A DNA stretch of 34,729 nucleotides from Chloroflexota bacterium (lineage in GTDB: Bacteria; Chloroflexota; Dehalococcoidia; SZUA-161; JAUWZY01), in assembly GCA_030615045.1 (NCBI GenBank), contig JAUWZY010000001.1, positions 1 through 34,729 on the forward strand, given 5' to 3'. Made by a program: the position numbers and the translations under genes. Shown here piece by piece: positions 2,720-16,756 of the stretch (the first letter of the stretch is position 1; each line of letters begins with the position of its first letter). Under the pieces are notes generated by a model. That model was given only the letters and a program-made list of their open reading frames with translations. It searched no databases and was not told where the DNA came from.

Positions 2720-3619
2720 TCAACTCCTGCTGTTATCCCTCGGCTCTTTGGGATAGGCGAAGACCATCCGTGCTGCTGCCCTCTGCAGCACCCTGGTGAC
2801 CACGACATCGATCTCAGCGTTGAGGTACCTTCGCCCCGCGTCGACTACGACTACGGTGCCATCGTCGAGGAAGCCAACCCCCTGTCCTGCCTCCTTACCC
2901 TCTTGAATGATGCGCAGCCTCATCTCATCGCCGGCGAGGACCACAGGTCTTATTGCGTTAGCCAGCTCATTAACGTTGAGCACGCGGATTCCCTGAAGTC
3001 CAGCCGCCCGGCTCAGGTTGAGGTCGTTGGTGACAATGGGGCAGCGGAGGCTTTTAGCCAACTGCACCAGCTTAGCATCAACCTCGGGGATGTTCTCGAA
3101 ATCGGTGTCCAGGACTTGAACTGGCACATCCGAGTCCGTTAGCATCCTGACCAGGATGCTAACGCCCCGGTGCCCCCGGTTACGCCGCATCGGGTCCGGC
3201 GAATCGGCGATATGCTGCAGCTCATTGAGCACAAACCTGGGAATGAGCAAGGTCTCGCGGATAAAGCCCGTCTGGCTGATATCGGCGATGCGGCCATCAA
3301 TAATGACATTAGTATCCAAGATGATGCGCCCATCATCACGGTGCGTGTCGCTTGGCGGAGCCGAGGTGGACAGCTGAAGGACATCGCGATTCCTCCCAAT
3401 CCAGCGCCAGAAAGAGGCGATGGCAGCCGGAGTAAACGCAAAGCCCACGGTGGCGCTGAGAAGCGCCACAGACATGCTCCACAGAAGCTCTCCACCTGGG
3501 GCCCAGTTGGCGATGAATAAGCCCAGCGCCCATCCGATAAAGCCCAGGACCACGGTGCCAATAAGCCGAATCACAATGCTAGCAGACATAAGCCCTGATA
3601 AGCCTCTCAGTCTTGACAA
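2720..3619 (-). CDS. membrane-anchored PIN/TRAM domain protein (YacL-like predicted RNase)
   Basis: The N-terminus is hydrophobic (IVIRLIGTVVLGFIGWALGLFIANW..., ...LLSATVGFAFTPAAIASFW). A PIN domain follows (IILDTNVIIDGRIADI...PRFVLNELQHIADS...IVTNDLNL), then a C-terminal TRAM-like beta domain (MRLRIIQEGKEAGQGVGFLDDGTVVVVD...VVVTRVLQ). The TTG start at 3619 lies 5 nt after GGAGGT; the ATG at 3589 is an alternative. Confidence 0.85.
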   Translation of the reverse strand: MSRLRGLSGLMSASIVIRLIGTVVLGFIGWALGLFIANWAPGGELLWSMSVALLSATVGFAFTPAAIASFWRWIGRNRDVLQLSTSAPPSDTHRDDGRIILDTNVIIDGRIADISQTGFIRETLLIPRFVLNELQHIADSPDPMRRNRGHRGVSILVRMLTDSDVPVQVLDTDFENIPEVDAKLVQLAKSLRCPIVTNDLNLSRAAGLQGIRVLNVNELANAIRPVVLAGDEMRLRIIQEGKEAGQGVGFLDDGTVVVVDAGRRYLNAEIDVVVTRVLQRAAARMVFAYPKEPRDNSRS

Positions 3620-3646
3620 CCGCCACCTCCCCCGGCTTTTCTCAGC

Positions 3647-3689
3647 TCAAACAAAATACCCCTCGGCCAGGTTAGTCCGAAGGGTATCT
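3647..3689 (-). terminator. intrinsic terminator, putative expression platform of riboswitch 1
   Basis: The minus-sense RNA is GAUACCCUUCGG-ACUAACCUGG-CCGAGGGGUAU followed by UUUGUUUG (with the stem's terminal U, a UUUUGUUUG tract). It lies between the aptamer and the PIN/TRAM start codon. Confidence 0.6.
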
Positions 3690-3699
3690 TCGTGATCTT

Positions 3700-3800
3700 T
3701 CGTGGTGGCAACCTAGCCGTCATAGCCTTGTAGAGGCCTTAGACCCTTGGCTTTGCGTCCCCTGATTTCTCAGGGTTTGCCCTTTTCACCGTCTACTATT
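3700..3800 (-). promoter_or_regulatory. c-di-GMP-I (GEMM-I) riboswitch aptamer, copy 1
   Basis: The minus-sense RNA is GGUGAAAAGGGCAAACCCUGAGAAAUCAGGGGACGCAAAGCCAAGGGUCUAAGGCCUCUACAAGGCUAUGACGGCUAGGUUGCC. It carries the hallmark blocks GGGCAAACC, a hairpin capped by a GAAA tetraloop (CUGA-GAAA-UCAG), GGGACGCAAAGCC and a CUAA-containing second hairpin. The order and spacing match my recollection of the Vibrio cholerae Vc2 aptamer. Confidence 0.85.
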
Positions 3801-3815
3801 CAGTTTTTCAGCGCT

Positions 3816-3845
3816 ATTATAACCCCGCTCTCCCCAAAAAGTCAA
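3816..3845 (-). promoter_or_regulatory. sigma70-type promoter driving riboswitch 1 and the PIN/TRAM gene
   Basis: The minus sense reads TTGACT (3845-3840), an 18-nt spacer, then TATAAT (3821-3816), about 20 nt upstream of the aptamer. Confidence 0.6.
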
Positions 3846-4021
3846 GCCCGCACTTTTTTTGAGATTGTTTAGCAACTCGTCCAACCGCAGTTTATCAATA
3901 GCGATGTTCCTCCTCTTCTTGCCCAGACCCGGGCAAGACTGCTTGAAGTCACAAAAATCCAAGGGAACAGCTATAGCCAGATAGCCTTGAAGCCACTAAG
4001 AAGGGAGCAGACGCTGCCCAT

Positions 4022-5113
4022 CTAATCTCGCTGCAGGGGGGTATCGGCTTTGCCGGTTGCGCTTTTCCAGATCTGGTTGCCGCCAGCTCGCTTAGCCCGA
4101 AACATAGCCTCATCTGCTGCTTGCAGGAGTTGTTCTTGGGTTACCGCGTCCTCGGGGTACGAAGCGATTCCAATACTGACTGTAGCCTATACCTCGCCGT
4201 GTATCGGCGCCAATTTCGCTATCGACTGTGCAACCCGCTTGGCAGCCTGGTAAGCGCCCTCAGCGGATGCAGCGGGCAGAAGGACTACAAACTCATCTCC
4301 GCCATACCTAGCCACTATGTCTGACACTCGGATCCCCGAGCTGATACTTCGTCCCAATGCCTGCAATAGCTTATCCCCGGCTCGATGGCCAAATCGATCG
4401 TTCACTTCTTTCAGGTCATCAACATCGATCATGAGAATCGAGAGTGGGTCTCCACTTCTGTGGGCCCGTGCCAGCTCTCGAGCCATCTGTTCCCTGAGGA
4501 AGCGAATGTTGTGAAGCCGTGTCAGGTCATCGATGAGAGAAAGCTCCTTTGCCCGGTCATAGAGGCAGGCGTTTTCAATGGCCAGTCCAGCAAGGCTGGC
4601 AAAAGCCACAAGGAACTCAACATCCTCGGTGGTGAAACCTGCGAGCTCTCCTGTCCTATCAACGCCAATGACTCCGATTACTTCCTCCCGAACATGAATA
4701 GGGACATCGATGAAGCATTTTGTGCCCAGCGCGGCGAGGCCCTCTCTGGAATCACGGCAGCGGGGATCGTTCCAGGGGTCGTCCACGACGATCGGCCTTT
4801 TCTCAAACACAGCGCAGAGCGCCGGATTTTGGATACCGGGATCCAGCGAGATCACGTTCATCACAACCTCGGGTGGCACGTTCTCGCCAAACCAGGCCAT
4901 GCCTCGGAGCACGCCAGCTTCCCTGTCCACCAGCCCAAGCCAGCCCCGGTCCCAGGCCAGGCGCTCTTGCAAGGACTTCATAATGCAATCTATCCTCTCC
5001 TCAAGGGATGCCAGAGCGAGAAGCTTCCGCGCAGTCTGGAATAGTACCTGTAGTTCATGAGTGTGCTCCACCACTTCTACAAACAAGCTCTCTACCTCGC
5101 CTATGCCAATCAC
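4022..5113 (-). pseudogene. GAF-GGDEF diguanylate cyclase interrupted by an in-frame TAG at 4187-4189
   Basis: The track ORF 4187..5113 starts with GTG. It has an N-terminal GAF-like region, an RVSD I-site-like RxxD motif five residues before RYGGDEFVVLL, and MIDVDDLKEVNDRFGHRAGD. It stops at ...PIHGEV-TAG. The same frame continues ATVSIGIASYPEDAVTQEQLLQAADEAMFRAKRAGGNQIW... to a TAG at 4022-4024. That stretch is the conserved C-terminal third of a GGDEF domain. Confidence 0.8.
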
Positions 5114-5127
5114 CTTCAGCCCATCCC

Positions 5128-5214
5128 CTACAGGATCATCAGGATGAGGCCTTTGCCCCCGATGAGGAGTGCAGTAACCATAAGAGCTAATATCCTCTCC
5201 TTCTTGCTAACCAT
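5128..5214 (-). CDS. possible 28-aa hydrophobic micro-protein upstream of the GGDEF gene
   Basis: ATG at 5214 is preceded by AAGGGAG. The product is MVSKKERILALMVTALLIGGKGLILMIL, with a stop 14 nt before the GGDEF GTG start. It is too short for the ORF track and I cannot assess homology. Confidence 0.25.
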   Translation of the reverse strand: MVSKKERILALMVTALLIGGKGLILMIL

Positions 5215-5353
5215 GCCATACACTCCCTTTTTCTTTTTTCTATCTCCAGCTTAGGGAAGCCGGCTCACATCCATGTCAAAAAGAGACCCCAAATCCTCAA
5301 AAAGAAATCACAGGCGGGCACCACCCCTTACGCCCCGAAACCGGAAACGGGGG

Positions 5354-5392
5354 AAAATAAAAAGTGAGCCTTCCGGATAGGGAAGGCTCACT
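5354..5392 (-). terminator. intrinsic terminator after the HK-REC-OmpR operon
   Basis: A perfect 12-bp stem AGUGAGCCUUCC/GGAAGGCUCACU with a 6-nt loop is followed on the minus strand by UUUUUAUUUU, about 50 nt after the regulator stop at 5441. Confidence 0.75.
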
Positions 5393-5440
5393 TAATGTAT
5401 TGGTGCCTCTCGACGCAGGGTGGTTACTATGTGATCATAG

Positions 5441-6169
5441 CTACTTCGCGATACTGTATCCGATGCCGGGTCTGGTTATGATGTATTTAGGGTTTTTGGC
5501 GTCATCCCCCAGCTTCTTCCTTAGCCTTGCCATATTGACCTGGACGATATGGTTTGCGCCGCAGTACTCCTCACCCCAAACCCTGCTCAGGATGTCATCG
5601 GGGGTTACCACCCGCCCTGCGTTGCGCGCCAAGTAGGAGAGCATCTTGTATTCTATAGCGGTCAGGTTTATCTCTCGCCCGGCCACAGTTACCACGTGGC
5701 GGGCAAAGTCAACCGCCAAATCCGCCGACTGAAAGGCTGGTTGTGGTCTTTCCTCCCACAGCTTGGTGCGGCGCAGCACCGCCCCCACACGGGCTGCCAA
5801 CTCCTTGGCAGAGAAGGGCTTGGGCACATAATCGTCAGCACCAGCGTTCAGTCCCTCGACTACCTCCTCTTCGTCACCCCTGGCAGTGACCATAATTATA
5901 GGTATCTGCGAGAACTCGCGAATGCGCTGACACACGGTATATCCATCAATGACGGGCATCACGATGTCCAGCAGCACCAGGTCTGGGGTTTCCTCATCAA
6001 ATACGTCAAGAGCAGCCTCACCGTTGCTGGCCGTGAGCACACGGTAACCCTCCAGATCCAGAATACGCTGCATCATGCGCAGCATGCGTACATCGTCATC
6101 AACCACCAGTATGGACGCTTTCCTTGATGGCATCCTGGTATCTCCGCTGGTACAGAATACGGTCGACAA
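5441..6169 (-). CDS. OmpR-family response regulator (REC + winged-helix DNA binding)
   Basis: ILVVDDDVRMLRMM...DLVLLDIVMPVIDG...ADDYVPKPFSAKEL forms the receiver domain. INLTAIEYKMLSYLARNAGRVVTPDDILSRVWGEEY...VQVNMARLRKKL...IITRPGIGY forms the Trans_reg_C domain. The likely true start is the ATG at 6133 (MPSRKASILVV); the track start at 6169 is TTG. Confidence 0.9.
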   Translation of the reverse strand: MSTVFCTSGDTRMPSRKASILVVDDDVRMLRMMQRILDLEGYRVLTASNGEAALDVFDEETPDLVLLDIVMPVIDGYTVCQRIREFSQIPIIMVTARGDEEEVVEGLNAGADDYVPKPFSAKELAARVGAVLRRTKLWEERPQPAFQSADLAVDFARHVVTVAGREINLTAIEYKMLSYLARNAGRVVTPDDILSRVWGEEYCGANHIVQVNMARLRKKLGDDAKNPKYIITRPGIGYSIAK

Positions 6170-6527
6170 CTCCCTTCAGGCTAGCTGCATTCAGGGGCTT
6201 GACGAGGTAGTCGGCAGCACCCATGCTGAGTGCCTTGTTTCGCTGCGATACCCCAGCTGAGGCGGTGAACATAATCACCGGAATCGCTGAGAGTGCTGGT
6301 TCAGTTTTCATCTGTTGCAACACCGCCCAGCCGTCATCTCCGGGCAGGCGCAAATCCAGCAGCACGAGAGCCATCGGGCTTTCTCTTGCCAATCTCAGCC
6401 CTTTGTCACCATCCTCAGCTTGAAGAACGCAGTAGCCCTCTAGCTGGAGCACCCGGGAGGCGAAGTGGCGGACGTCAGCCTCATCCTCTATAATAAGGAT
6501 CGTCTTTGTTTCATGTCTCCTTGCCAT
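6099..6527 (-). CDS. stand-alone CheY-like receiver protein
   Basis: ILIIEDEADVRHF...ALVLLDLRLPGDDGW...PVIMFTA...GAADYLVKPL shows the receiver acidic pocket, phospho-acceptor Asp, Thr and Lys. There is no output domain. It overlaps the start of the next gene. Confidence 0.85.
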   Translation of the reverse strand: MARRHETKTILIIEDEADVRHFASRVLQLEGYCVLQAEDGDKGLRLARESPMALVLLDLRLPGDDGWAVLQQMKTEPALSAIPVIMFTASAGVSQRNKALSMGAADYLVKPLNAASLKGVVDRILYQRRYQDAIKESVHTGG

Positions 6528-6545
6528 AGTTCCAGCCCTATTTGT

Positions 6546-7355
6546 CTATAGCGGCAAGGTGAAGGAACACTTGCTTCCCTTCCCTTCCTCGCTTTCCATC
6601 CAGATGCGGCCACCATGTGCTTGCACCAGCCCCTTGGAGATGGACAGCCCCAGTCCTAAACCTTCCTCTTGGGGCAGCCTTTTCTCAATCCGATACATCC
6701 AATCAAACACTCTCTCCAGGTCCCCAGCAGGTATGCCTATTCCCTGGTCAGCGACGCTGATATGCAACTCCGAGCCCCCCCGGTGTGCCTGTACCACCAC
6801 GCTGCTTCCCTCTTTGGAATACTTGCAGGCGTTGTCGATCAGGTTATCCAGTACCTGCCTAATGCGCTTAGCATCAATGTTCACCCTCGGTAATCCCTTC
6901 CTCATGTTCAACACTATCTGGTGCCTGGGTGCCGTCAACTTAGCCTCAGCCACCGCCTCTCGGATCAGTTTTGAGATGCTGATGGGCTGTTTTTCCAGCT
7001 TCAGCAGCCCTGCATTAAGCTGGGACATATCTAGCAGATGGTCTACAAGCTCGGTGAGCCTATCAGTTGCTCTGTCTATGGATTGCAGGTGCTCCTGTTT
7101 CTCCTCACACCTCAGCCTCCGGTCGTAGTCCAGCAGCATGGTAGTATACCCCTTGATGGCTGCCAGTGGAGTGCGCAACTCGTGCGAAACTGTGGAAAGG
7201 AGATCGCTCTTAAGCCTGTCTAGCTCCTCGTATTCAACCACTTTCCTCTCAAGCTGCTGGCGCTCGGCTTCTACCTTTTCCAATTCAGCAATTCGTTGGC
7301 ATAGTTCTGCCAATTCATTTGTGATCCGCTTTTTTGTCTTAGCTTCGTCTTTCAC
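6546..7355 (-). CDS. cytoplasmic histidine kinase lacking a recognisable sensor domain (coiled coil + HisKA + HATPase_c)
   Basis: The H-box is STVSHELRTPLAAIKGY. The N, G1 and G2 blocks are VLDNLIDNACKY, VADQGIGIP and GLGLGLSISKGLVQAHGG. The first ~50 aa form a charged heptad-like helix (ELAELCQRIAELEKVEAERQQLERKVVEYEELDRLK). There are no TM segments. The start is GTG at 7355. Confidence 0.9.
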   Translation of the reverse strand: MKDEAKTKKRITNELAELCQRIAELEKVEAERQQLERKVVEYEELDRLKSDLLSTVSHELRTPLAAIKGYTTMLLDYDRRLRCEEKQEHLQSIDRATDRLTELVDHLLDMSQLNAGLLKLEKQPISISKLIREAVAEAKLTAPRHQIVLNMRKGLPRVNIDAKRIRQVLDNLIDNACKYSKEGSSVVVQAHRGGSELHISVADQGIGIPAGDLERVFDWMYRIEKRLPQEEGLGLGLSISKGLVQAHGGRIWMESEEGKGSKCSFTLPL

Positions 7356-7435
7356 CTTCTACCCCCCCCCGAAACAGGCACCAATTTCACCTGAGAGCCA
7401 GAGGGGCGAACCGCCGATTCGCGCTATGACATCAA

Positions 7436-7477
7436 GGAAATAAAAACGCGCTTCCCCGGGCCTCCCAGGAAAGCACG
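7436..7477 (-). terminator. intrinsic terminator, putative expression platform of riboswitch 2
   Basis: The minus-sense RNA is CGUGCUUUCC-UGGGAGGCCC-GGGAAGCGCG (10-bp stem with two G-U pairs) followed by UUUUUAUUU. It lies between the aptamer and the kinase start. Confidence 0.55.
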
Positions 7478-7487
7478 TCCCCTGTGC

Positions 7488-7586
7488 TTGCTTCGCCTTC
7501 GGCAGCCCGGCTGTCATAGATTGCTAACCCTTAGACCCGAGGCTTTGCGTCACCGCCTTTCAGCGGTTTTGCCCTTTCGGTGCGTA
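7488..7586 (-). promoter_or_regulatory. c-di-GMP-I (GEMM-I) riboswitch aptamer, copy 2
   Basis: The minus-sense RNA is CGCACCGAAAGGGCAAAACCGCUGAAAGGCGGUGACGCAAAGCCUCGGGUCUAAGGGUUAGCAAUCUAUGACAGCCGGGCUGCCGAAGGCG. It shows the same conserved blocks as copy 1: GGGCAAAACC, a GAAA-capped hairpin CCGCU-GAAA-GGCGG, GACGCAAAGCC and GGGUCUAAGG...CUAUGAC. Stem sequences co-vary between the two copies. Confidence 0.85.
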
Positions 7587-7627
7587 TTCAATTGTTGCTG
7601 GGTCAGATCACCCAACTCAGCGGGCGT

Positions 7628-7657
7628 ATTTTAACATATGTAGTTACTGTTTGTCAA
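7628..7657 (-). promoter_or_regulatory. sigma70-type promoter driving riboswitch 2 and the HK operon
   Basis: The minus sense reads TTGACA (7657-7652), an 18-nt spacer, then TAAAAT (7633-7628). Confidence 0.55.
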
Positions 7658-7863
7658 CCCGGGCCGGCGTTCCTGCATTTACTCACGTTCGGAAGCACCC
7701 CTTCCTCCTCCTTCCAGGGGAGGCGGCGCTATGACCACCTCCAATTTTATCTCCGCCATGGACTGACTTTGCCAAGTGCGAAGCATTTGACCAAACCGGG
7801 TGAGGCGCAAGCCCGCGTTAGATGAAGTCACAGCTTATTTTTGGGGCAAGGAAACCACTTCGA

Positions 7864-9389: not shown

Positions 9390-10397
9390 ATGGGGATAGA
9401 GATGATAGGATATGAACGATACGAAGTGGAGAGAAAAGTAATAGCAATCCTCAAGATACTAAGCGAGTCCCGCGAGCCTCTGGGAGCTAAGGTGATTGCC
9501 CAGCGACTGAAGGATTACGGCGTTGACCTTCGGGAGAGAGCAGTAAGGTACCACCTAAAGATCACGGACGAAAGGGGTCTCACCCAGCTCATAGGAAGAG
9601 ACGGGAGGTTGATCACTGAGTCAGGGATAGAAGAGCTGAAGAGTGCTCTGGTTGGTGACAAGGTTGGCTTTGTTATCAGCAAGATCGAGCTGCTGGCCTT
9701 CCAGACCTCCTTCGACTGGAAAACGCGCAGCGGTCATGTCCCGGTCAATGTTTCCCTTTTCCCCAAAGAACAATTCGACAAGGCTCGCAAGGCAATGAGC
9801 GATGCTTTCAAAGCAGGAATCTGTGTCAGCGATTCAGTAGCTATAGCTCGTGAAGGGGAAAGGTTAGCCGGAGTAACCGTGCCTGAAGGTAAGATCGGCT
9901 TTGCCACCGTATGTAGCATCATAATCAACGGGGCTCTGCTTAAAGCAGGCATCCCCATGGATTCGAAATTCGGTGGCCTGCTCCAAATAAGGAATGAGAA
10001 ACCTTTGCGATTTGTCGAACTCATCGAGTATGCCGGCTCTTCGCTCGATCCCTCGCAGGTATTCATCACCAGTAGAATGACCAGTGTAGGGGAAGCAGCC
10101 AGAAAAGGCGAAGGGAAGGTAGTGGCCAACTTTCGGCAGATACCGGCTTTATGCAGGCCTGTTGCCGAAAAAGTGGTCTCCGCATTAAGAGAAGCCGGGC
10201 TTGGCGGGCTGCTTATGATGGGAGACACAAGCCAGTCGGTGTGCGAAATCCCGGTGGAATTGAATAAGGTGGGCATTATACTCTTGGGCGGCCTCAACCC
10301 AGTGGCTGCCGCTGTAGAAGTCGGCATAGATGTGGAAAACAGGGCTATGAGCGGCGTCCTGGATTACCGGGACCTGGTAGGCTTCTGGCAGCTATAA
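9390..10397 (+). CDS. NrpR-like regulator (N-terminal winged helix + DUF128/NRD domain)
   Basis: ERKVIAILKILSESREPLGAKVIAQRLKDYGVDLRERAVRYHLKITDERGLTQLIGRDGRLITESGIEEL is the wHTH arrangement I recall for NrpR/COG1693 repressors of nif and glnA. One DUF128-like domain follows (VGFVISKIELLAFQTSFD...). This is a recollection-based family call. Confidence 0.65.
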   Translation: MGIEMIGYERYEVERKVIAILKILSESREPLGAKVIAQRLKDYGVDLRERAVRYHLKITDERGLTQLIGRDGRLITESGIEELKSALVGDKVGFVISKIELLAFQTSFDWKTRSGHVPVNVSLFPKEQFDKARKAMSDAFKAGICVSDSVAIAREGERLAGVTVPEGKIGFATVCSIIINGALLKAGIPMDSKFGGLLQIRNEKPLRFVELIEYAGSSLDPSQVFITSRMTSVGEAARKGEGKVVANFRQIPALCRPVAEKVVSALREAGLGGLLMMGDTSQSVCEIPVELNKVGIILLGGLNPVAAAVEVGIDVENRAMSGVLDYRDLVGFWQL

Positions 10398-10418
10398 AAG
10401 GATATAAGGAGGTGACCG

Positions 10419-11987
10419 ATGTCTTTGAGCAAGCCAAATACAAGTGCGGCAACGGTAACCACAACCAGGGTAGCGCCCTCGCCTACCTCTGGGCTATGCG
10501 TCACCTGTGTAGACGGCTGCCCAGGCTATTGCGAGGTGGGCAGGTCTGCTCTTCGAGGAAGGGAGATTATCTATCCTCAGCCCTTCGGGCAGGTCATCGC
10601 CGGGGCGGAGAAGGACTATCCCGTCGATTTCTCTCACTTCAATATCCAGGGAACCTGTGTGGGGGCAGTTGGCATCGAGGCAGACCCGGATAAAGCCGTC
10701 TTTCCTGCTGTCGATCTCTCGACCGAGATCGGCGCCACGGGGAGGAAGATCAGAATGAAGGTCCCCCTCTTCACCGGAACTCTGGGCTCGACTGAAATAG
10801 CCAGGGTGAATTGGGAAGGCACCGCTATCGGCGTAGCCATATGTGGAGCCGTGCTCGTCTGCGGGGAGAATGTCTGTGCCATGGATCCCAACGCCGAGTT
10901 TGAACAGGGAAGGGTTGTGAGATCCCCCGAGCTCGAAAGAAGGGTAAAGATATACCAGGACTGGTACCAAGGCTATGGGACAATCATTGTCCAGGCAAAC
11001 GTGGAGGATACTCGCCTCGGTGTCCCCGAATATGCGATAGAGAGACTTGGGGTTGAGGATATCGAAATAAAGTGGGGCCAAGGCGCCAAATCCATCGGTG
11101 GGGAGGTCAAGCTGCCGACCCTGGAGAGGGCCCTGGAACTCAAGCGAAGGGGATACTTGGTTATTCCTGACCCTGAAAATCCTGTAGTTCAAGAGGCTTA
11201 TAAGGTAGGGGGAATAACAGAATTCGAGAGGCACTCCCGCCTGGGAATGGTGGATGAGGATTCTTTCCTGAAGGAGGTGGAGAGGCTGAGGAGACTAGGC
11301 GCCAAGTATGTGACCCTGAAAACTGGAGCCTACCGAGCGCCTGATTTGGCTCGGGCGGTTAAATTCGCCTCCGAAGCCCAAATAGACCTCCTCACTGTGG
11401 ACGGCGCTGGCGGCGGCACGGCAATGAGCCCGTGGCGCATGATGAATGAATGGGGCATCCCCACGGTATACCTGGAAAGCCTACTTTATAGATTCCTCAC
11501 CAGGCTTGAAGCAAAAGGGGCATTTATCCCCAGCTGTGCTATTGCTGGTGGGCTCGCCCTCGAGGACCAGATTTTCAAAGCTATAGCCCTGGGAGCGCCC
11601 TTTGTAAAGGCGGTATGTATGGGGCGGGCGACCCTTACTGCGGCTATGGTGGGAAAGACACAGGGGCAGTTTTTGGAAGAGACCTATGGCCGAGGTAGTA
11701 GAGAGTACCAGGATGCCCTGCTTCGCACCTTCGTCGCAGCAGCACAGCTCAGGGAAGACTATGGAGAAGACTTCGAGAGGATACCGCCAGCGGCAGTAGC
11801 CGTCTATACTTATTACGACAGGCTGGCCACGGGCCTGAGACAACTGATGGCTGGGGCTCGTAAGTTTGCCCTCGATTTCATGGATAGAAATGACCTGATG
11901 GCGCTGACACGAGAGGCGGCGGATGTCTCGGGTATCCCTTATGTGATGGAGGCGGATATGGAGGAGGTGGAGAGGATTTTAGGGTGA
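10419..11987 (+). CDS. glutamate synthase-related FMN-binding protein (GltB domain-2 type, archaeal-like)
   Basis: The N-terminus has a Cys cluster (CVTCVDGCPGYCEVG). A TIM-barrel region follows with IEIKWGQGAKSIGGEVKL..., LLTVDGAGGGTAMSPW and AIAGGL...KAIALGAPFV.., typical of GltS FMN domains. There is a strong SD (AAGGAGGTG) before ATG 10419. Confidence 0.8.
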   Translation: MSLSKPNTSAATVTTTRVAPSPTSGLCVTCVDGCPGYCEVGRSALRGREIIYPQPFGQVIAGAEKDYPVDFSHFNIQGTCVGAVGIEADPDKAVFPAVDLSTEIGATGRKIRMKVPLFTGTLGSTEIARVNWEGTAIGVAICGAVLVCGENVCAMDPNAEFEQGRVVRSPELERRVKIYQDWYQGYGTIIVQANVEDTRLGVPEYAIERLGVEDIEIKWGQGAKSIGGEVKLPTLERALELKRRGYLVIPDPENPVVQEAYKVGGITEFERHSRLGMVDEDSFLKEVERLRRLGAKYVTLKTGAYRAPDLARAVKFASEAQIDLLTVDGAGGGTAMSPWRMMNEWGIPTVYLESLLYRFLTRLEAKGAFIPSCAIAGGLALEDQIFKAIALGAPFVKAVCMGRATLTAAMVGKTQGQFLEETYGRGSREYQDALLRTFVAAAQLREDYGEDFERIPPAAVAVYTYYDRLATGLRQLMAGARKFALDFMDRNDLMALTREAADVSGIPYVMEADMEEVERILG

Positions 11988-11998
11988 AGGAGGGGAAG

Positions 11999-12208
11999 AT
12001 GCTCAGAACTATCTGTTTGCAGAACTGTCCTTGTCCCTTCTGTATCTCAGCATGCCCTTCAGGTGCTCTGGCGGTGAAAGATAATCAGGTTGTGGTGGAA
12101 TCAGACAGGTGCCACGGATGTGGCGTGTGCCGCTATATGTGTATGACCTGGAGCAGAGACCATTCGATGAGGGCGAAGAGCGCAGCCTGGCTTGCAGGAA
12201 GAATGTAA
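11999..12208 (+). CDS. small 4Fe-4S ferredoxin-domain protein
   Basis: CPCPFCISACP and CHGCGVCRYMC are the cluster motifs. ATG 11999 lies 5 nt after AAGGAGG. The track start GTG 11984 overlaps the stop of the upstream gene and is an alternative start. Confidence 0.7.
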   Translation: MLRTICLQNCPCPFCISACPSGALAVKDNQVVVESDRCHGCGVCRYMCMTWSRDHSMRAKSAAWLAGRM

Positions 12209-12606
12209 ACTGTGCCCTAAGATAAACGAGCATTGTGGATGGAACAGGGGTGGCTTTATCTACTGGGCCGCTCCACGGCGAAGTGCCATGGCGCTGAAAT
12301 CACCATGGGCTACGAGGGGATGAGGATAGTCCTTTAAGGAGGTTCGAGTCCGGCCCGGGATGCGGAGTTGGCTCGAATGTGAAATTGCCCTGCCGAGTTG
12401 ATGTAGCGAATTATTAGATTTAGCCCTATCAGGGGCAGCGAACCACAAAAGTAGATTGAATGAGCTATATTTAGGTATAGGAAATGTAACAGTGGTAAAA
12501 GCTGTTGTCATTTAGTAAAATTAGGCAGTAGCTCATATACCTAATGTCGGTACGGTGGTGAACAAGATGACATTACAATCTACTGGGCTGAAGGGAGAGG
12601 AAAGCC

Positions 12607-13791
12607 ATGTTGAGTCATGTGGAAATTAAGAATTACAAGAGTCTCGCTTCCACTGTGGTCAATCTTGATAGTTTCACAGTGCTGGTAGGACCCAACGGGG
12701 CAGGTAAGAGCAACTTTGTAGACGCGCTACGCTTCGTCAACCAATGTCTCGTTTCCTCTATTACTCTGCCAATTCAGGATCGTGGTGGAATCGGTGCTGT
12801 GCGGCGACGCTCCAGGGGTCATCCCAGACATTTTGGCTTTCACTTAGGAATAGAGCTTCCCTCAGGGCTGTTCGCAGATTTCTCCTTTGAGATCGCTGCC
12901 CTGCCTAAAGGAGCCTTCGAGGTCAAACAGGAAAGATGCATCGTGCAATCTGCGCTGGGCAAAAGGGACCAGTATGAAGTAGAGGGCGGGAAGTTCAAGC
13001 GAGGAGTGGAGGGGATTAGGGCCAAGATCGAACCAGATCGTCTGGCCCTAACCGTGGTCTCTGCAGCAGAAGAGTTTCGCCCCGTATACGATTATTTGAG
13101 TGGCATGCGGTTCTATTCGTTGGCGCCAGATAAGATTCGTGAATTACAGGGAGCCGATCCGGGTGAGGTATTGGAGCGTAATGGCAGTAATGCCGCAGCA
13201 GTCCTGAGAGAGATCAGAAAGGAGAAGCCAGATAACTACGACCGACTTTGCCGGCTACTATCAAAGGTCGTTCCTGGCACCAAAAGTGCCGAGTATGTTT
13301 CAGTCGGGCAAAAGGAAACTATCCTCTTCAAACAGGAGGTAGAGGGGGATAGCGCGCTATGGGCCTTCGATTCATTGAGTATGTCAGATGGTACACTTCG
13401 AGTGTTAGGTATACTGCTGGCGGTATATCAGGTGTCACCCCCGACTCTAATCGCAATTGAGGAGCCTGAAGCCACCATTCACCCTGCGGCATTAGATGTG
13501 TTAGTGGATATACTCAAAGACGGCACACATCGAGCACAAATCCTGCTTACCACCCACAGCCCTGACATCTTGGATAATAAAAGCATCAAAGACAGTGAGA
13601 TTCTTGTCGTGGAGTCCATCAAGGGGAAAACCACTATAGCCCCGATGGATGGGAAGTCCCGTGATATGGTGCGTCAGCACCTATACACGGCTGGAGAGCT
13701 ACTCCGTTCCGGAGAATTGGAGCCTGATAGAGAAAAAGCCATGGAGTTGGGGGAGCAACTAAATCTATTTGGTCCAGTAAATTACTCATGA
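12607..13791 (+). CDS. ABC/SMC-like ATPase (AAA_15/AAA_21 type, OLD/PARIS-AriA/Septu-PtuA-like)
   Basis: The N-terminal strand-loop reads VEIKNYKSL...LVGPNGAGKSNFVDAL, with Walker A at nt 12688-12711. An ABC-signature-like LSMSDGTLRVLG, Walker B/D-loop LIAIEEPEATIHP and H-loop LLTTHSPDIL follow. SD GGGAGAGGAAAG precedes the ATG. Confidence 0.85.
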   Translation: MLSHVEIKNYKSLASTVVNLDSFTVLVGPNGAGKSNFVDALRFVNQCLVSSITLPIQDRGGIGAVRRRSRGHPRHFGFHLGIELPSGLFADFSFEIAALPKGAFEVKQERCIVQSALGKRDQYEVEGGKFKRGVEGIRAKIEPDRLALTVVSAAEEFRPVYDYLSGMRFYSLAPDKIRELQGADPGEVLERNGSNAAAVLREIRKEKPDNYDRLCRLLSKVVPGTKSAEYVSVGQKETILFKQEVEGDSALWAFDSLSMSDGTLRVLGILLAVYQVSPPTLIAIEEPEATIHPAALDVLVDILKDGTHRAQILLTTHSPDILDNKSIKDSEILVVESIKGKTTIAPMDGKSRDMVRQHLYTAGELLRSGELEPDREKAMELGEQLNLFGPVNYS

Positions 13792-14381
13792 CAGATTCAA
13801 TTGTGCCAATTGTCGAGGGACAGTCTGAGGTGGATTCAGTGCCGGTGCTAATGCGTCGCCTCCGAGACGAGTGGGGCAAATACCAACTGGAAATTGGAAA
13901 ACCGGTTCGGGTCAAACGCTACCAAGTCATTAAGGAGGGCGAGTTGGAAAGACGAGTTATGATGGCAATGCAACGCCCAAACTGTCGGGCTGTCATAGTA
14001 ATCCTCGATGCGGACGATGATTGTCCAAAGGATTTTGCGCCGAAGTTGTTAGAGCGGGCCAAACAAGCAGCACAAAATACACTTGTATCGGTTGTCTTGC
14101 CGAAGTCGGAGATGGAATCTTGGTTTGTGGGCAGCATCGAATCTCTGCGTGGCGTGTGTGGTATCTTAGACACAGCGTGTTCACCATCCGATCCTGAAGC
14201 CATACGCGATGCGAAGGGATTTCTAACTAGAGCGATGGAGGGGAGTCACCACTACCTTGAGGTAGATGACCAGCCTGCCTTTGCAGAGAAATTTGATCTA
14301 ACCCAGGCTCTTAGCAATTGTCGTTCGTTTAAGAAATTCTATAATGATTTCCGCAGAATCGTATGCTTGCTCACTCCATAG
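13788..14381 (+). CDS. small Toprim-like protein resembling the DUF4276 family
   Basis: The start overlaps the ATPase stop (ATGA). IVEGQSE (Glu codon at 13815-13817), VIVILDADDDCP (14007-14021) and KSEMESWF give the E...DxD acidic pattern of Toprim folds, in the order I recall for DUF4276. This is a family call from memory. Confidence 0.7.
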   Translation: MTDSIVPIVEGQSEVDSVPVLMRRLRDEWGKYQLEIGKPVRVKRYQVIKEGELERRVMMAMQRPNCRAVIVILDADDDCPKDFAPKLLERAKQAAQNTLVSVVLPKSEMESWFVGSIESLRGVCGILDTACSPSDPEAIRDAKGFLTRAMEGSHHYLEVDDQPAFAEKFDLTQALSNCRSFKKFYNDFRRIVCLLTP

Positions 14382-14482: not shown

Positions 14483-16756
14483 CTACTGGCTCAAAAGCCC
14501 CTCAAGTATCATCTGGGCTGCTTTTTTGTCCAGGGGCTCGTTGTTGTTGCCGCACTTAGGCGACTGAATGCAGCTGGGGCAGCCCTCCTCACAGGGGCAT
14601 TCCAAGAGCACTCTCAGCGTCTCCTGCCAAAGCCTGCCGATAAGCTCGAAGCCTTTCTCCACGATGCCGACTCCTCCCGGATAGGCATCATAGATGAAAA
14701 CCTCGGCTTTCCCGGTATCGGGGTGCAATGGGGTGGAAACGCCGCCAATATCGTTTCTATCGCAGAGGGCAAATAGCGGCAGCATGGCAATCGTGGCATG
14801 CTCTACGGCATGGAGCCCGCCAGCAAGGTCCAGCCCAGCCTGTGCCAGCTGAGTCTCAACCGGAGGCGGGATATTGAACCAGAGCGCCACCGTATTGAAG
14901 GATTGCGCGGGCAGGTCCAGGGGCTCCTCTGCGATAACCTCCTCGGTGAACACCCGCTTCTTCCTGAAGCCAATTACCCTGTTGGTCACTTCCACCTCTC
15001 CCAGATGAACCCGGCCTTGGCCAAAGGCCTTCTCTTGGCTTACCTTTAGCATCCTGAGGTCGGTGACGTCCTTGGCTTGGGTATAGTAGGTGGCGTCCGT
15101 GGGCCGGCAATAGGCGGTGTGAGCTATAAGGTCTAACTCGGTGACCAGATAGGACTCACCTTGATGGATATAGATAGCGCCGGGGTGAATTTGAGACAAA
15201 GCAACTGCCGATCCCACCGTCTCCAAGAGACAACCTGTGCTGACATCAACCAAGCCATAGCTCTCAGCTGAGGTGGTGCGAATATTTATATCCTGTGCCG
15301 GATAGATAACGCTTGGCGCTGGATACCACCGAGGGTTACGATGGCGCAAAAAGCCCTCTCCTTCCAGTTCCGCCATTGCCTGCTCCAGGTCGCCGGCAAA
15401 GAATTCCTGGTCGCCGTCGGTCAACGGCAGCTCCCAGGAGGCGCAGAGGAGATGGGGCTTGAGGATATATTGATTTCTGGGGTCGATCAAAGCATGCTCA
15501 TAGCTCTTGGCGAAGAAGACCTCGGGGTGGCGCATAAAATATTGGTCTAAGGGGCTATCCAAACCAATGAGAAAGCTCAACGAGTCCTCCCTCCCCCGGC
15601 CACTCCTCCCCGCCTGCTGCCAGGTGCTGGCGATGCTCCCCGGATATCCAGAGAGCACGGTGGCATCGAGGTCGCCAATATCAATCCCCAGCTCCAAGGC
15701 GGTGGTGGCCACCGCAGCCAAAAGCCGACCCTCAAAGAGCTCGCGCTCGATCTGGCGCCGTTCCTCGGGGAGATAGCCAGCACGATAGGGCTTTACCCGC
15801 TCCCCAAGATCTGGACTCTCGGCGAGTTGCTCCCGCATATAGAGATAGATGAGCTCGGTGAGGCGTCGCGTCCTGGCGAAAGCCAGGCTCCTGATCCCAT
15901 TACGCATCAACTCGGTTAATAGCAGGGTGGTTTCGCTGTTGGCGCTGCGCCGAACGGACTTGGCTTCATCGATAAGCGGCGGATTCCAAAAGACAAAGTC
16001 CTTCCCGCCGTGGGGGGAACCGTCCTCGGTGATGGGCTGAAACGGGACGCCGCATAGCCTCTCGGCATGCTCTTTGGGATTGGCGATAGTGGCCGAGCAG
16101 CAAATGAATCGGGGCTGGCTGCCATAGTGCGCGCAAAGGCGCTTCAGGCGGCGCAGCACATTGGCGACATGAGAGCCGAAAACGCCACGATACACATGGG
16201 CCTCGTCAATGACTACGTACTTCAGCTGAGTTAGCAGTCGCCACCAAGAGCGATGATTGGGCAGGATGCCGAGATGAACCATGTCTGGATTTGAGAGCAC
16301 GATGTTTGCTGACCTCTTTATCTCGGAGCGCTGCCAGCTTGGCGTATCGCCATCGAAGGTGGCATGCTTTACCCCGAGCCCAGAGGTCAGCTCTTTTAGG
16401 CTTCGCAGTTGGTCTTGAGCTAAAGCTTTGGTTGGGAACAGATAGAGGGCTCGGCTCCCCTTATCCGTCAGCATGGCATTCAGCACCACCAGGTTGTAGC
16501 AAAGCGTTTTGCCACTGGCGGCAGGGGTAGCAATGACGACATTCTCCCCAGAGCGAGCAGCATTTATGGCCGCCGCTTGATGGCGATAAAGGGGGAGCAG
16601 ATGGAACCTGTCAAGGATAGACTCAAGTGCCGGGTGAAGCGGCTGGGCTAACTGGCCATAGCTGGCTTCGCTTGAGGTTAAATGCTCATGATGGACGATT
16701 TGGTCTCGATAGGAGGGAAGGCTTCTCAGGTGATCGAGGAAAGCTGAGGTGTTCAT
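14483..16756 (-). CDS. DEAD/DEAH-box helicase with C-terminal DUF1998 zinc module (MrfA/YprA-like)
   Basis: Motif I is ATPAASGKTLCY, motif II VVIDEAHVYRG, motif III CCSAT and motif VI QQAGRSGRG. The C-terminal four-Cys module is CPCEEGCPSCIQSPKCGNNNEPLDK. Confidence 0.9.
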   Translation of the reverse strand: MNTSAFLDHLRSLPSYRDQIVHHEHLTSSEASYGQLAQPLHPALESILDRFHLLPLYRHQAAAINAARSGENVVIATPAASGKTLCYNLVVLNAMLTDKGSRALYLFPTKALAQDQLRSLKELTSGLGVKHATFDGDTPSWQRSEIKRSANIVLSNPDMVHLGILPNHRSWWRLLTQLKYVVIDEAHVYRGVFGSHVANVLRRLKRLCAHYGSQPRFICCSATIANPKEHAERLCGVPFQPITEDGSPHGGKDFVFWNPPLIDEAKSVRRSANSETTLLLTELMRNGIRSLAFARTRRLTELIYLYMREQLAESPDLGERVKPYRAGYLPEERRQIERELFEGRLLAAVATTALELGIDIGDLDATVLSGYPGSIASTWQQAGRSGRGREDSLSFLIGLDSPLDQYFMRHPEVFFAKSYEHALIDPRNQYILKPHLLCASWELPLTDGDQEFFAGDLEQAMAELEGEGFLRHRNPRWYPAPSVIYPAQDINIRTTSAESYGLVDVSTGCLLETVGSAVALSQIHPGAIYIHQGESYLVTELDLIAHTAYCRPTDATYYTQAKDVTDLRMLKVSQEKAFGQGRVHLGEVEVTNRVIGFRKKRVFTEEVIAEEPLDLPAQSFNTVALWFNIPPPVETQLAQAGLDLAGGLHAVEHATIAMLPLFALCDRNDIGGVSTPLHPDTGKAEVFIYDAYPGGVGIVEKGFELIGRLWQETLRVLLECPCEEGCPSCIQSPKCGNNNEPLDKKAAQMILEGLLSQ

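Follow-up and report, generated by a model that had tools for sequence, protein, structure and literature searches.

The window analysed here is the whole 34,729 nt contig of a metagenome-assembled genome (MAG) from an uncultivated member of the Chloroflexota. The region of interest is a 5 kb stretch of its minus strand, in which two transcription units each open with a riboswitch of the GEMM-I class, the class that responds to cyclic di-GMP (c-di-GMP). In the direction of transcription, unit 1 consists of a promoter, riboswitch 2 and a leader terminator, followed by genes for a histidine kinase, a stand-alone CheY-like receiver and an OmpR-family regulator, and it closes with a strong terminator (5393–5362). 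A micro-ORF and a GAF-GGDEF gene, the latter of the diguanylate cyclase type, come next. Unit 2 then consists of a promoter, riboswitch 1, a leader terminator and a gene for a membrane protein with a PIN domain, a paralog of YacL (Table 1). A preliminary description of this DNA, made from the sequence, had given the same order on the same strand, and that order was confirmed. Likewise, no EAL or HD-GYP domain was found in any long open reading frame (ORF) of the window with Pfam and NCBIfam, which served for all domain calls; the preliminary description had also reported none.

Table 1. Coordinates of the features of the two riboswitch-headed units and the genes between them, in order of transcription
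Feature	Position in window	Strand	Basis and remarks
Unit 1 promoter, TTGACA / 18 nt spacer / TAAAAT, with TG	7628–7657	-	11/12 consensus matches; same site in L173
Riboswitch 2, GEMM-I aptamer	7498–7583	-	RF01051, 86.2 bits
Riboswitch 2 leader terminator	7433–7482	-	Terminator scan (7482–7442): 19 pairs and T run; outside aptamer
Minimal histidine kinase, 269 aa: coiled-coil leader, DHp (HisKA), HATPase_c	6546–7355	-	Pfam/NCBIfam
Stand-alone CheY-like receiver, 142 aa	6099–6527	-	Pfam REC
OmpR-family regulator (REC and Trans_reg_C), 230 aa from ATG at 6133, overlapping the end of the receiver gene	5441–6133	-	Pfam/NCBIfam
Unit 1 end terminator	5362–5393	-	Terminator scan: 13 pairs and T run; also in L173
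Micro-ORF, 28 codons, hydrophobic (MVSKKERILALMVTALLIGGKGLILMIL), AGGGAG ribosome-binding site, ending 12 nt ahead of the cyclase start	5128–5214	-	Predicted ORF
GAF-GGDEF diguanylate cyclase gene with nonsense codon	4022–5113	-	Pfam; ORF up to stop 4187–5113
In-frame TAG, codon 309 of 363, inside GGDEF domain	4187–4189	-	CAG>TAG versus relatives
Unit 2 promoter, TTGACT / 18 nt spacer / TATAAT	3816–3845	-	11/12 consensus matches
Riboswitch 1, GEMM-I aptamer	3704–3791	-	RF01051, 80.3 bits
Riboswitch 1 leader terminator	about 3648–3688	-	Folding: 11 bp stem, 10 nt loop, U tract; outside aptamer
YacL-family PIN/TRAM paralog, two transmembrane helices	2720–3619	-	Pfam PIN; likely start ATG 3589, 289 aa

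An rpoB search placed the nearest named relatives of the window among Dehalococcoidia and Chloroflexota MAGs at 66–72% identity, and a closer relative with a 96%-identical RpoB sits on a 283 kb contig. The window is considered chromosomal because it also carries rpoB, rpoC, valS, nusB, dnaJ and hisF. For comparison of the locus, contigs of relatives that align to the window at 94–96% nucleotide identity (L082, L083, L171, L173 and L174) were used.

An Rfam scan of the whole window returned exactly two matches, both to c-di-GMP-I (RF01051), on the minus strand, covering the full model (1–87) and scoring well above the gathering score of 35 bits; the two GEMM-I riboswitches of the preliminary description were thus borne out by the covariance model. 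In the Rfam alignments both aptamers have a GAAA tetraloop in hairpin 1 and a UCUAAG/UAUGA receptor in hairpin 2; a GNRA tetraloop with its receptor has been described as a GEMM feature (PMC1950547). The contact bases G20, A47 and C92 (numbering of Vc2) are canonical, with GGG, GCAAAGCC and CC invariant in an alignment to the Vc2 sequence. Both aptamers lie in a 5′ untranslated region (UTR), with a promoter upstream and a terminator and ORF downstream. Riboswitch 1 is kept in L082, L083, L171, L173 and L174, and riboswitch 2 is kept in L173, with a counterpart of approximately 80% identity in L081, a contig of a more distant relative. By these sequence features, both aptamers are ordinary members of a well-known riboswitch class.

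Two variant classes share the GEMM-I fold and differ in ligand or consensus at the contact positions. In c-GAMP (cyclic GMP-AMP) riboswitches G20 is replaced by A (PMC6140456). Position 20 is G, not A, in both copies of the window, which speaks against a c-GAMP (GEMM-Ib) identity. The second class, RF03167 (c-di-GMP-I-GGC), outscored RF01051 when the riboswitch 2 copies of L173 and L081 were scanned. In the region of position 47, the window riboswitch 2 and its L173 copy read GACGCAAA, against GACGCGAA in the variant consensus. Position 47 is A, not G, and a GGC variant with another ligand was rejected for riboswitch 2 on this ground; the L173 and L081 copies are also read as canonical because A stands where the RF03167 consensus has G. 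The defining substitutions of both variants (A20 and G47) are thus absent from the window, and c-di-GMP rather than c-GAMP is the likely predicted ligand of both aptamers, as the preliminary description had supposed.

The leader of riboswitch 2 ends in a terminator that was found by the terminator scan, and the single changes seen in L173 preserve its pairs (C-G to U-G, U-G to U-A). The loop of the riboswitch 1 terminator exceeds the length that the scan allows, and this terminator was identified by folding instead; five leaders agree in its arms and in the AACCUGG loop and vary in the linker. The transcript of riboswitch 2 opens with a 5′ stem-loop, UUGGGUG...CCCAGC (7584–7621), which is kept in L173 apart from a one-base deletion and may be a transcript-stabilizing hairpin.

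Minimum free energy (MFE) folds of the full-length leaders hold aptamer and terminator together. A thermodynamic reading of the direction of switching is therefore uninformative, and any anti-termination would have to be kinetic. In leader 1, the 3′ strand of hairpin 2 (CGGCUAGGUUG) can form an 11 nt pairing with the loop and 3′ arm of the terminator (UAACCUGGCCG), and this candidate anti-terminator becomes the MFE fold at a transcript length of 148; its partner in the terminator loop is invariant in the five leaders, in contrast to the variable linker adjacent to it. Other candidate pairings were discarded. Hairpins between the linker and the 5′ arm of the terminator that might act as anti-terminators (CGAAG/CUUCG in leader 1, AAGCAC/GUGCUU in leader 2) are broken in relatives, and a GCCACC/GGUGGC pairing near the ribosome-binding site of the YacL paralog, which would point to translational control, has an unconserved partner that reads GGGAGC in L171 and L173. 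In the ON design described for GEMM riboswitches, the 5′ arm of the terminator overlaps the 3′ side of hairpin 2, an arrangement seen in 78 of 322 instances (PMC1950547). Since neither terminator of the window overlaps its aptamer, the balance tips slightly towards OFF switches in both cases, with ligand favouring termination. Support for this direction is weak. The length of the leader 1 pairing was reached by 90 of 2000 shuffles, a marginal result; in the same kind of shuffle test, complementarity between aptamer and expression platform was not significant for leader 2 or for L081; and riboswitch 1 of L173 precedes a polysaccharide cluster, where the usual c-di-GMP paradigm would be an ON switch, which speaks mildly against OFF.

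The kinase of unit 1 has just 48 residues ahead of HisKA. No transmembrane segment and no PAS, GAF, HAMP or other sensor domain precedes its dimerization and histidine phosphotransfer (DHp) domain, and no hydrophobic segment is present (maximum 19-residue hydropathy 0.63), so that the earlier characterization of the kinase as lacking a recognizable sensor stands. The kinase motifs are intact (H box SHELRTPL, N box DNLIDNACKY, G1 DQGIGI, G2 GLGLGL). The receivers have the phospho-acceptor Asp in LLDL or LLDI and the conserved Lys of the KP motif, and the winged-helix output is present. A receiver also follows the kinase in L084, L086, L087, L089, L093, L096, L097, L173 and L178. The ratio of non-synonymous to synonymous substitution rates (dN/dS) in the catalytic part of the kinase is 0.25, not different from housekeeping genes, and relaxed selection on the kinase was rejected on this basis. 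An exact look-up of the kinase protein returned no match, probably because the deposited start codon differs.

Nucleotide alignment shows the window kinase to be in three pieces. The first 32 or so codons correspond to kinase 1 of L173 (MK.EAKTK...IAELEKVEAER), the last 229 codons correspond to kinase 2 of L173 from EYEELDR onward, and between them lies a patch of about 8 codons (about 24 nt; QQLERKVV) that matches neither L173 kinase. At this junction 3.1 kb of L173 (4780–7882) is missing from the window, and by sequence comparison the difference may be either a deletion in the window or an insertion in L173. The L173 junction partners have only about 10 nt in common (GAGCGCAAGC), the ERK.AE motif of a PAS linker, which makes an assembly collapse unlikely.

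Short kinases of the same design occur elsewhere. Sixteen metagenomic orthologs of the kinase (57–79% identity) are mostly 544–1003 aa long with PAS-like N-termini; about half of them are followed by the same receiver and OmpR genes, and no GEMM-I element was found beside any of the 16. Two of the 150 best representatives, P0373 (290 aa) and P0380 (270 aa), align co-linearly with the window kinase from end to end. These two and the window kinase have the same leader and linker, the linker being 3 residues shorter than in PAS-containing forms. On 14 contigs P0373 is the first gene of a cassette that continues with the receiver and OmpR genes; a plain promoter precedes it, and there is no GEMM-I. 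The recurrence of the short kinase independently of any riboswitch indicates that the minimal design is natural and not tied to c-di-GMP riboswitches, and the architecture is probably a functional one. The window kinase itself is probably active, given its intact catalytic motifs, purifying selection and a linker length as in the independent short kinases. The preliminary description had made c-di-GMP the only input to this kinase; the presence of the short kinase and the same partners behind a plain promoter on those 14 contigs does not bear this out.

Both the 3.1 kb absence and the nonsense codon of the neighbouring cyclase gene could in principle have arisen in metagenome assembly, through repeat collapse, a strain chimera or a base error. 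The window is the whole contig of a MAG, several haplotypes co-occur in related samples, and a single-base error is compatible with the sequence alone. Nonetheless, the small overlap of the junction partners and the unique patch of about 24 nt between them mean that there is no repeat of k-mer length to mislead an assembler, the flanks are co-linear with relatives at 94–96% identity over 20 kb, and the resulting kinase is co-linear with natural short kinases. An assembly artefact is accordingly judged very improbable.

In the GAF-GGDEF gene, the GGDEF match of the uninterrupted ORF ends at profile position 112 of 161. The sequence around the stop reads ...IHGEV-TAG-ATVSIGIASYPED...ADEAMFRAKRAGGN, and the remaining 54 codons of the domain continue in frame; with the TAG masked, the GGDEF model matches 3–164 of 168 in one stretch. 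At the DNA level the codon is CAG in L082, L083 and L081, Gln occupies this column in 9 of 11 orthologs, and intact orthologs of 360–364 aa exist at 91–93% identity. The public annotation of this contig gives the cyclase as 308 aa (P0362). Recoding of TAG as pyrrolysine or another residue was ruled out, since 10 of the 20 long ORFs of the window, those of the kinase and the OmpR regulator among them, end in TAG, the most frequent true stop there, and since relatives carry CAG. The dN/dS of the cyclase against a relative is 0.24, from which it follows that the stop is either very recent or a base error. Genuine or not, the stop leaves the window sequence with no complete cyclase, and the copy lacks the complete GGDEF domain of an active enzyme. 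The GGDEF motif is present, and the RxxD I-site-like motif of the preliminary description was found as RVSD, five residues ahead of it. The micro-ORF has homologs, with substitutions, in L082 and, as annotated genes, in L173 and L174. The pairing of micro-ORF and GAF-GGDEF gene that had been proposed is thus present, with the GGDEF gene interrupted by the TAG at 4189–4187. The companion proposal, that the adjacent cyclase makes the ligand, does not hold for a gene cut at codon 309 of 363 and annotated at 308 aa. As the adjacent gene is a nonsense allele, c-di-GMP in this strain must come from cyclases encoded elsewhere.

The gene behind riboswitch 1 belongs to the YacL family. In the comparison of leaders the TTG start at 3619 is unconserved and the ATG at 3589 is conserved. 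The PIN domain matches that of Thermus TTHA0540 (PDB 3ix7; E 1e-28, 43% identity) and its acidic residues D102, E133, D181 and D199 are invariant; homologs carry the database names ‘YacL’ and ‘PIN/TRAM domain-containing protein’. Members of the family measure approximately 353 aa and carry a membrane domain of four helices (YCF81_N). From the window protein and its 92% ortholog, an in-frame stretch of 61 residues spanning helices 3 and 4 is missing. This leaves the window protein with two hydrophobic segments and explains why the YCF81_N model misses it. No TRAM match was obtained for the window protein with Pfam even at E 10, and the Pfam TRAM threshold is passed by the aligned homologs P0226 and P0237. 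The structure predicted with AlphaFold (mean pLDDT 72.5, with 80–92 in the PIN and C-terminal domains) has two long N-terminal helices; its PIN fold matches 3ix7 with a TM-score of 0.86, and its five-strand C-terminal beta domain matches the TRAM protein 1yez (TM-score 0.75, rmsd 2.2) and MiaB. A TRAM-like C-terminal domain is thus suggested by the homologs and the predicted fold. Of the membrane PIN/TRAM protein first described, the PIN domain and the membrane segments stand; the protein is a deletion variant that keeps two of the four helices of the YacL family, and the TRAM domain has no Pfam match.

Full-length relatives of this protein (353 aa, 76–78% identical) lie in a housekeeping context of RNase Y, YmdB, PHP, YacL, IspD, IspF and CysS, with no riboswitch, and the yacL-ispD-ispF context was seen only for these 353 aa relatives and not for the window paralog. 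Because helices 3 and 4 are missing and the gene lies outside this context, it is interpreted as a relocated, shortened YacL paralog. Its dN/dS is 0.61 (N:S 24:13; Fisher p = 0.003 versus housekeeping genes), which indicates relaxed constraint. In Bacillus subtilis, yacL lies just downstream of disA, the gene of a c-di-AMP (cyclic di-AMP) cyclase (PMC6755099). The literature search turned up nothing specific on the function of YacL, and in the literature searched no YacL-type gene was found as a riboswitch-controlled gene.

The genes associated with the two riboswitches differ between close relatives. L173 and L174, which are 94% identical to the window, begin with hisF, a CoA-binding gene, a promoter, riboswitch 2 and a terminator. 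The operon behind riboswitch 2 encodes a PAS-PAS kinase (548 aa), a REC-REC protein (250 aa), a REC-PAS kinase (506 aa), a REC protein (143 aa) and an OmpR regulator (230 aa), and ends in a terminator. Beyond it lie the micro-ORF, the cyclase gene in intact form (363 aa), riboswitch 1, a 63 aa in-frame remnant of the YacL paralog and a polysaccharide-synthesis cluster. The junction of the remnant lies at a GTVV microhomology, and the cluster starts approximately 420 nt further on (L173 11233–21092), with five GT4 glycosyltransferases, a methyltransferase, a Polysacc_synt flippase and a UDP-glucose dehydrogenase; a cluster of this kind behind riboswitch 1 may be a classic c-di-GMP output. In L082 and L083, hisF is followed by approximately 230 nt with a remnant of a kinase C-terminus; the next elements are the micro-ORF, a cyclase gene in intact form, riboswitch 1 and the PIN gene. 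These two contigs lack riboswitch 2, the CoA-binding gene and all of the kinase operon. Within the 230 nt filler, L082 1260–1330 encodes GIGPRLVVTKTLVGGHGDAK followed by a stop, which resembles the G2-box end of L173 kinase 1; the L082 haplotype therefore appears to have arisen by deletion. In L171 the PIN gene stands behind riboswitch 1, and the gene downstream of it is a different one. Window position 2593 is a common breakpoint at which the matches of L171 and of L173 and L174 to the window end exactly; past it lie a GIY-YIG gene in L171, the polysaccharide cluster in L173 and L174, and a radical-SAM gene in the window. The sole adjacency common to all versions found is the cyclase gene followed by riboswitch 1. 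On these comparisons, the pairings of riboswitch and gene are recent and changeable, and do not form a conserved module.

A further arrangement was observed in L081 (6425–11149). A promoter, a GEMM-I element approximately 80% identical to riboswitch 2 and a terminator precede an operon with a 94 aa ORF, a MEDS-domain protein, a 786 aa GAF/PAS kinase and, 34 nt downstream, an ortholog of the cyclase (71–73% identity). This would place a cyclase under direct riboswitch control. The tetraloop receptor of this GEMM-I element is altered (CUGUAG).

Beyond these strains the arrangement was not recovered. No GEMM-I element was found within 10 kb of 80 YacL loci from species representatives (1.2 Mb), nor in 0.5 Mb around 80 kinase relatives, a total of 1.7 Mb of related DNA; the survey used a covariance model built for the purpose from five sequences, which might overlook divergent copies, yet agreed with Rfam at every locus scanned by both. 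Recurrence of HK-REC-OmpR (HK, histidine kinase) or PIN/TRAM genes behind GEMM-I elements, for which the preliminary description had proposed a comparison, was seen in the near-identical strains and at none of the 80 YacL or 80 kinase loci. A search of the literature on GEMM-I in Chloroflexi turned up nothing specific.

The preliminary description had drawn the region as a compact, dedicated circuit, and in its full form that proposal has the adjacent cyclase making c-di-GMP as the sole input, through the two riboswitches, to a sensor-less two-component system and a membrane RNase under feedback. All the parts do lie within 5 kb on one strand, the kinase has no recognizable sensor, the cyclase ortholog is intact and under purifying selection in relatives (dN/dS 0.24) and always beside riboswitch 1, and in L081 a cyclase ortholog is the last gene of an operon headed by a homologous riboswitch. 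This self-contained circuit is nevertheless considered unlikely. The cyclase is truncated in the window and a strong terminator separates it from the OmpR gene; riboswitch 2 heads a multi-PAS, multi-sensor phosphorelay in L173 and is absent together with its operon in L082 and L083; riboswitch 1 precedes either the YacL paralog or the 63 aa remnant and polysaccharide cluster; and short kinases of the same design stand behind plain promoters. Nor is the arrangement outside the standard repertoire, as had been stated: histidine kinase, PAS, GGDEF, HD-GYP and cheY were listed as GEMM-associated in 2007 (PMC1950547).

The same differences between strains could instead reflect decay, in which the island is being lost and the riboswitches govern vestigial genes, namely a crippled fusion kinase, a pseudogenized cyclase and a degenerating YacL duplicate. 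The nonsense codon, the loss of 61 aa from the YacL paralog with its dN/dS of 0.61 and the remnant in L173 and L174, the deletion of the whole kinase operon in L082 and L083, and the three different sequences beyond the breakpoint at 2593 all fit such a process. Set against it are the dN/dS of 0.25 in the catalytic part of the kinase, like that of housekeeping genes, and a kinase fusion that is in frame with the linker length of P0373 and P0380. Additionally, no variation is seen at the four acidic residues of PIN, each leader is complete and has a strong promoter, and the dN/dS of 0.24 for the cyclase implies a very recent stop. Decay of the island is thus rather unlikely, somewhat less so than the self-contained circuit.

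The explanation favoured here, by a little over even chances, is that the region is a signalling island responsive to c-di-GMP, in a form peculiar to this strain; it would be a variant of a familiar type of control and not a novel, self-contained circuit. It would comprise two independent transcription units, each with a strong promoter, a canonical GEMM-I aptamer and an intrinsic terminator 15–20 nt beyond it, and c-di-GMP bound during transcription would decide whether RNA polymerase halts at the leader terminator. Unit 1 would make the minimal kinase, the stand-alone receiver and the OmpR-type regulator, with the output of the kinase probably set largely by its amount and hence partly by riboswitch 2. 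From unit 2 would come the YacL paralog, relocated and shortened relative to the housekeeping membrane PIN/TRAM protein. The ligand in this strain would come from cyclases encoded elsewhere. Two points temper this explanation, in addition to the possible blind spot of the survey model: the TAG may stem from a sequencing or consensus error in the metagenome-assembled contig, and the kinase may be inactive despite its intact motifs. A bolder version is that recombination placed a constitutively active minimal kinase behind a riboswitch, with the RNA as sole sensor of a two-component pathway that turns the level of the second messenger into transcription dependent on phosphorylation, and that the second riboswitch gates a specialized membrane PIN/TRAM RNase paralog and so links c-di-GMP to RNA turnover. 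This version is regarded as improbable; if it were true, the series of strains would document how, in nature, sensor domains gave way to an RNA sensor.

Several features elsewhere in the window were recorded. Beside hisF, a NrpR-type nitrogen repressor (HTH_12 and NRD1_2) adjoins a glutamate-synthase-like protein (9390–11987); L082 lacks this region, and hisF is there joined to sequence matching window 12202–12288. At 12607–14381, an AAA_21/AAA_15 ATPase (394 aa) and a DUF4276 protein (197 aa) with overlapping stop and start have the appearance of an OLD/AbiE-like defence pair. They are followed by an MrfA-like DEAD helicase with an MZB zinc domain (14483–16756).

Compared with known c-di-GMP-I riboswitches (RF01051), such as Vc2 of Vibrio cholerae and Cd1 of Clostridioides difficile, the two elements have the same two-hairpin aptamer with GAAA tetraloop, receptor and contact bases, the same 5′ UTR placement with an intrinsic terminator after it, and the same association with signal-transduction genes; they differ in that the host belongs to the Chloroflexota and that the terminators do not overlap the 3′ strand of P2. 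The window paralog likewise has the PIN domain with four acidic residues, a conserved C-terminal beta domain of predicted TRAM-like fold and the N-terminal membrane anchor of the YacL/Ycf81 family (COG4956; PDB 3ix7), but it lacks transmembrane helices 3 and 4, lies outside yacL-ispD-ispF, is under relaxed constraint and stands behind a riboswitch. Sensor-less cytoplasmic kinases with abundance-dependent output are also known, for example in the threshold model of KinA in Bacillus subtilis. The window kinase similarly has DHp and catalytic domains behind a coiled coil, and its expression level is a plausible control point; in contrast to those kinases, its promoter-proximal control element is a second-messenger riboswitch, and a 94%-identical relative has PAS and REC modules in the operon.

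No new kind of regulatory system is revealed by the locus. What is new is modest: GEMM-I riboswitches in this Chloroflexota lineage, a YacL-type paralog as a riboswitch target, and near-identical strains with the same switches and different genes. If the riboswitches work as proposed, c-di-GMP sensing would be added to a poorly studied, uncultivated lineage of the Chloroflexota. They would also give a first regulatory clue for a YacL-type PIN/TRAM protein, a member of a widespread family without established function. Lastly, the strain series, with its multi-PAS phosphorelay, its minimal kinase and its loss of the operon, would be a natural set in which to follow the rewiring of riboswitches and operons and the role of a sensor-less kinase.

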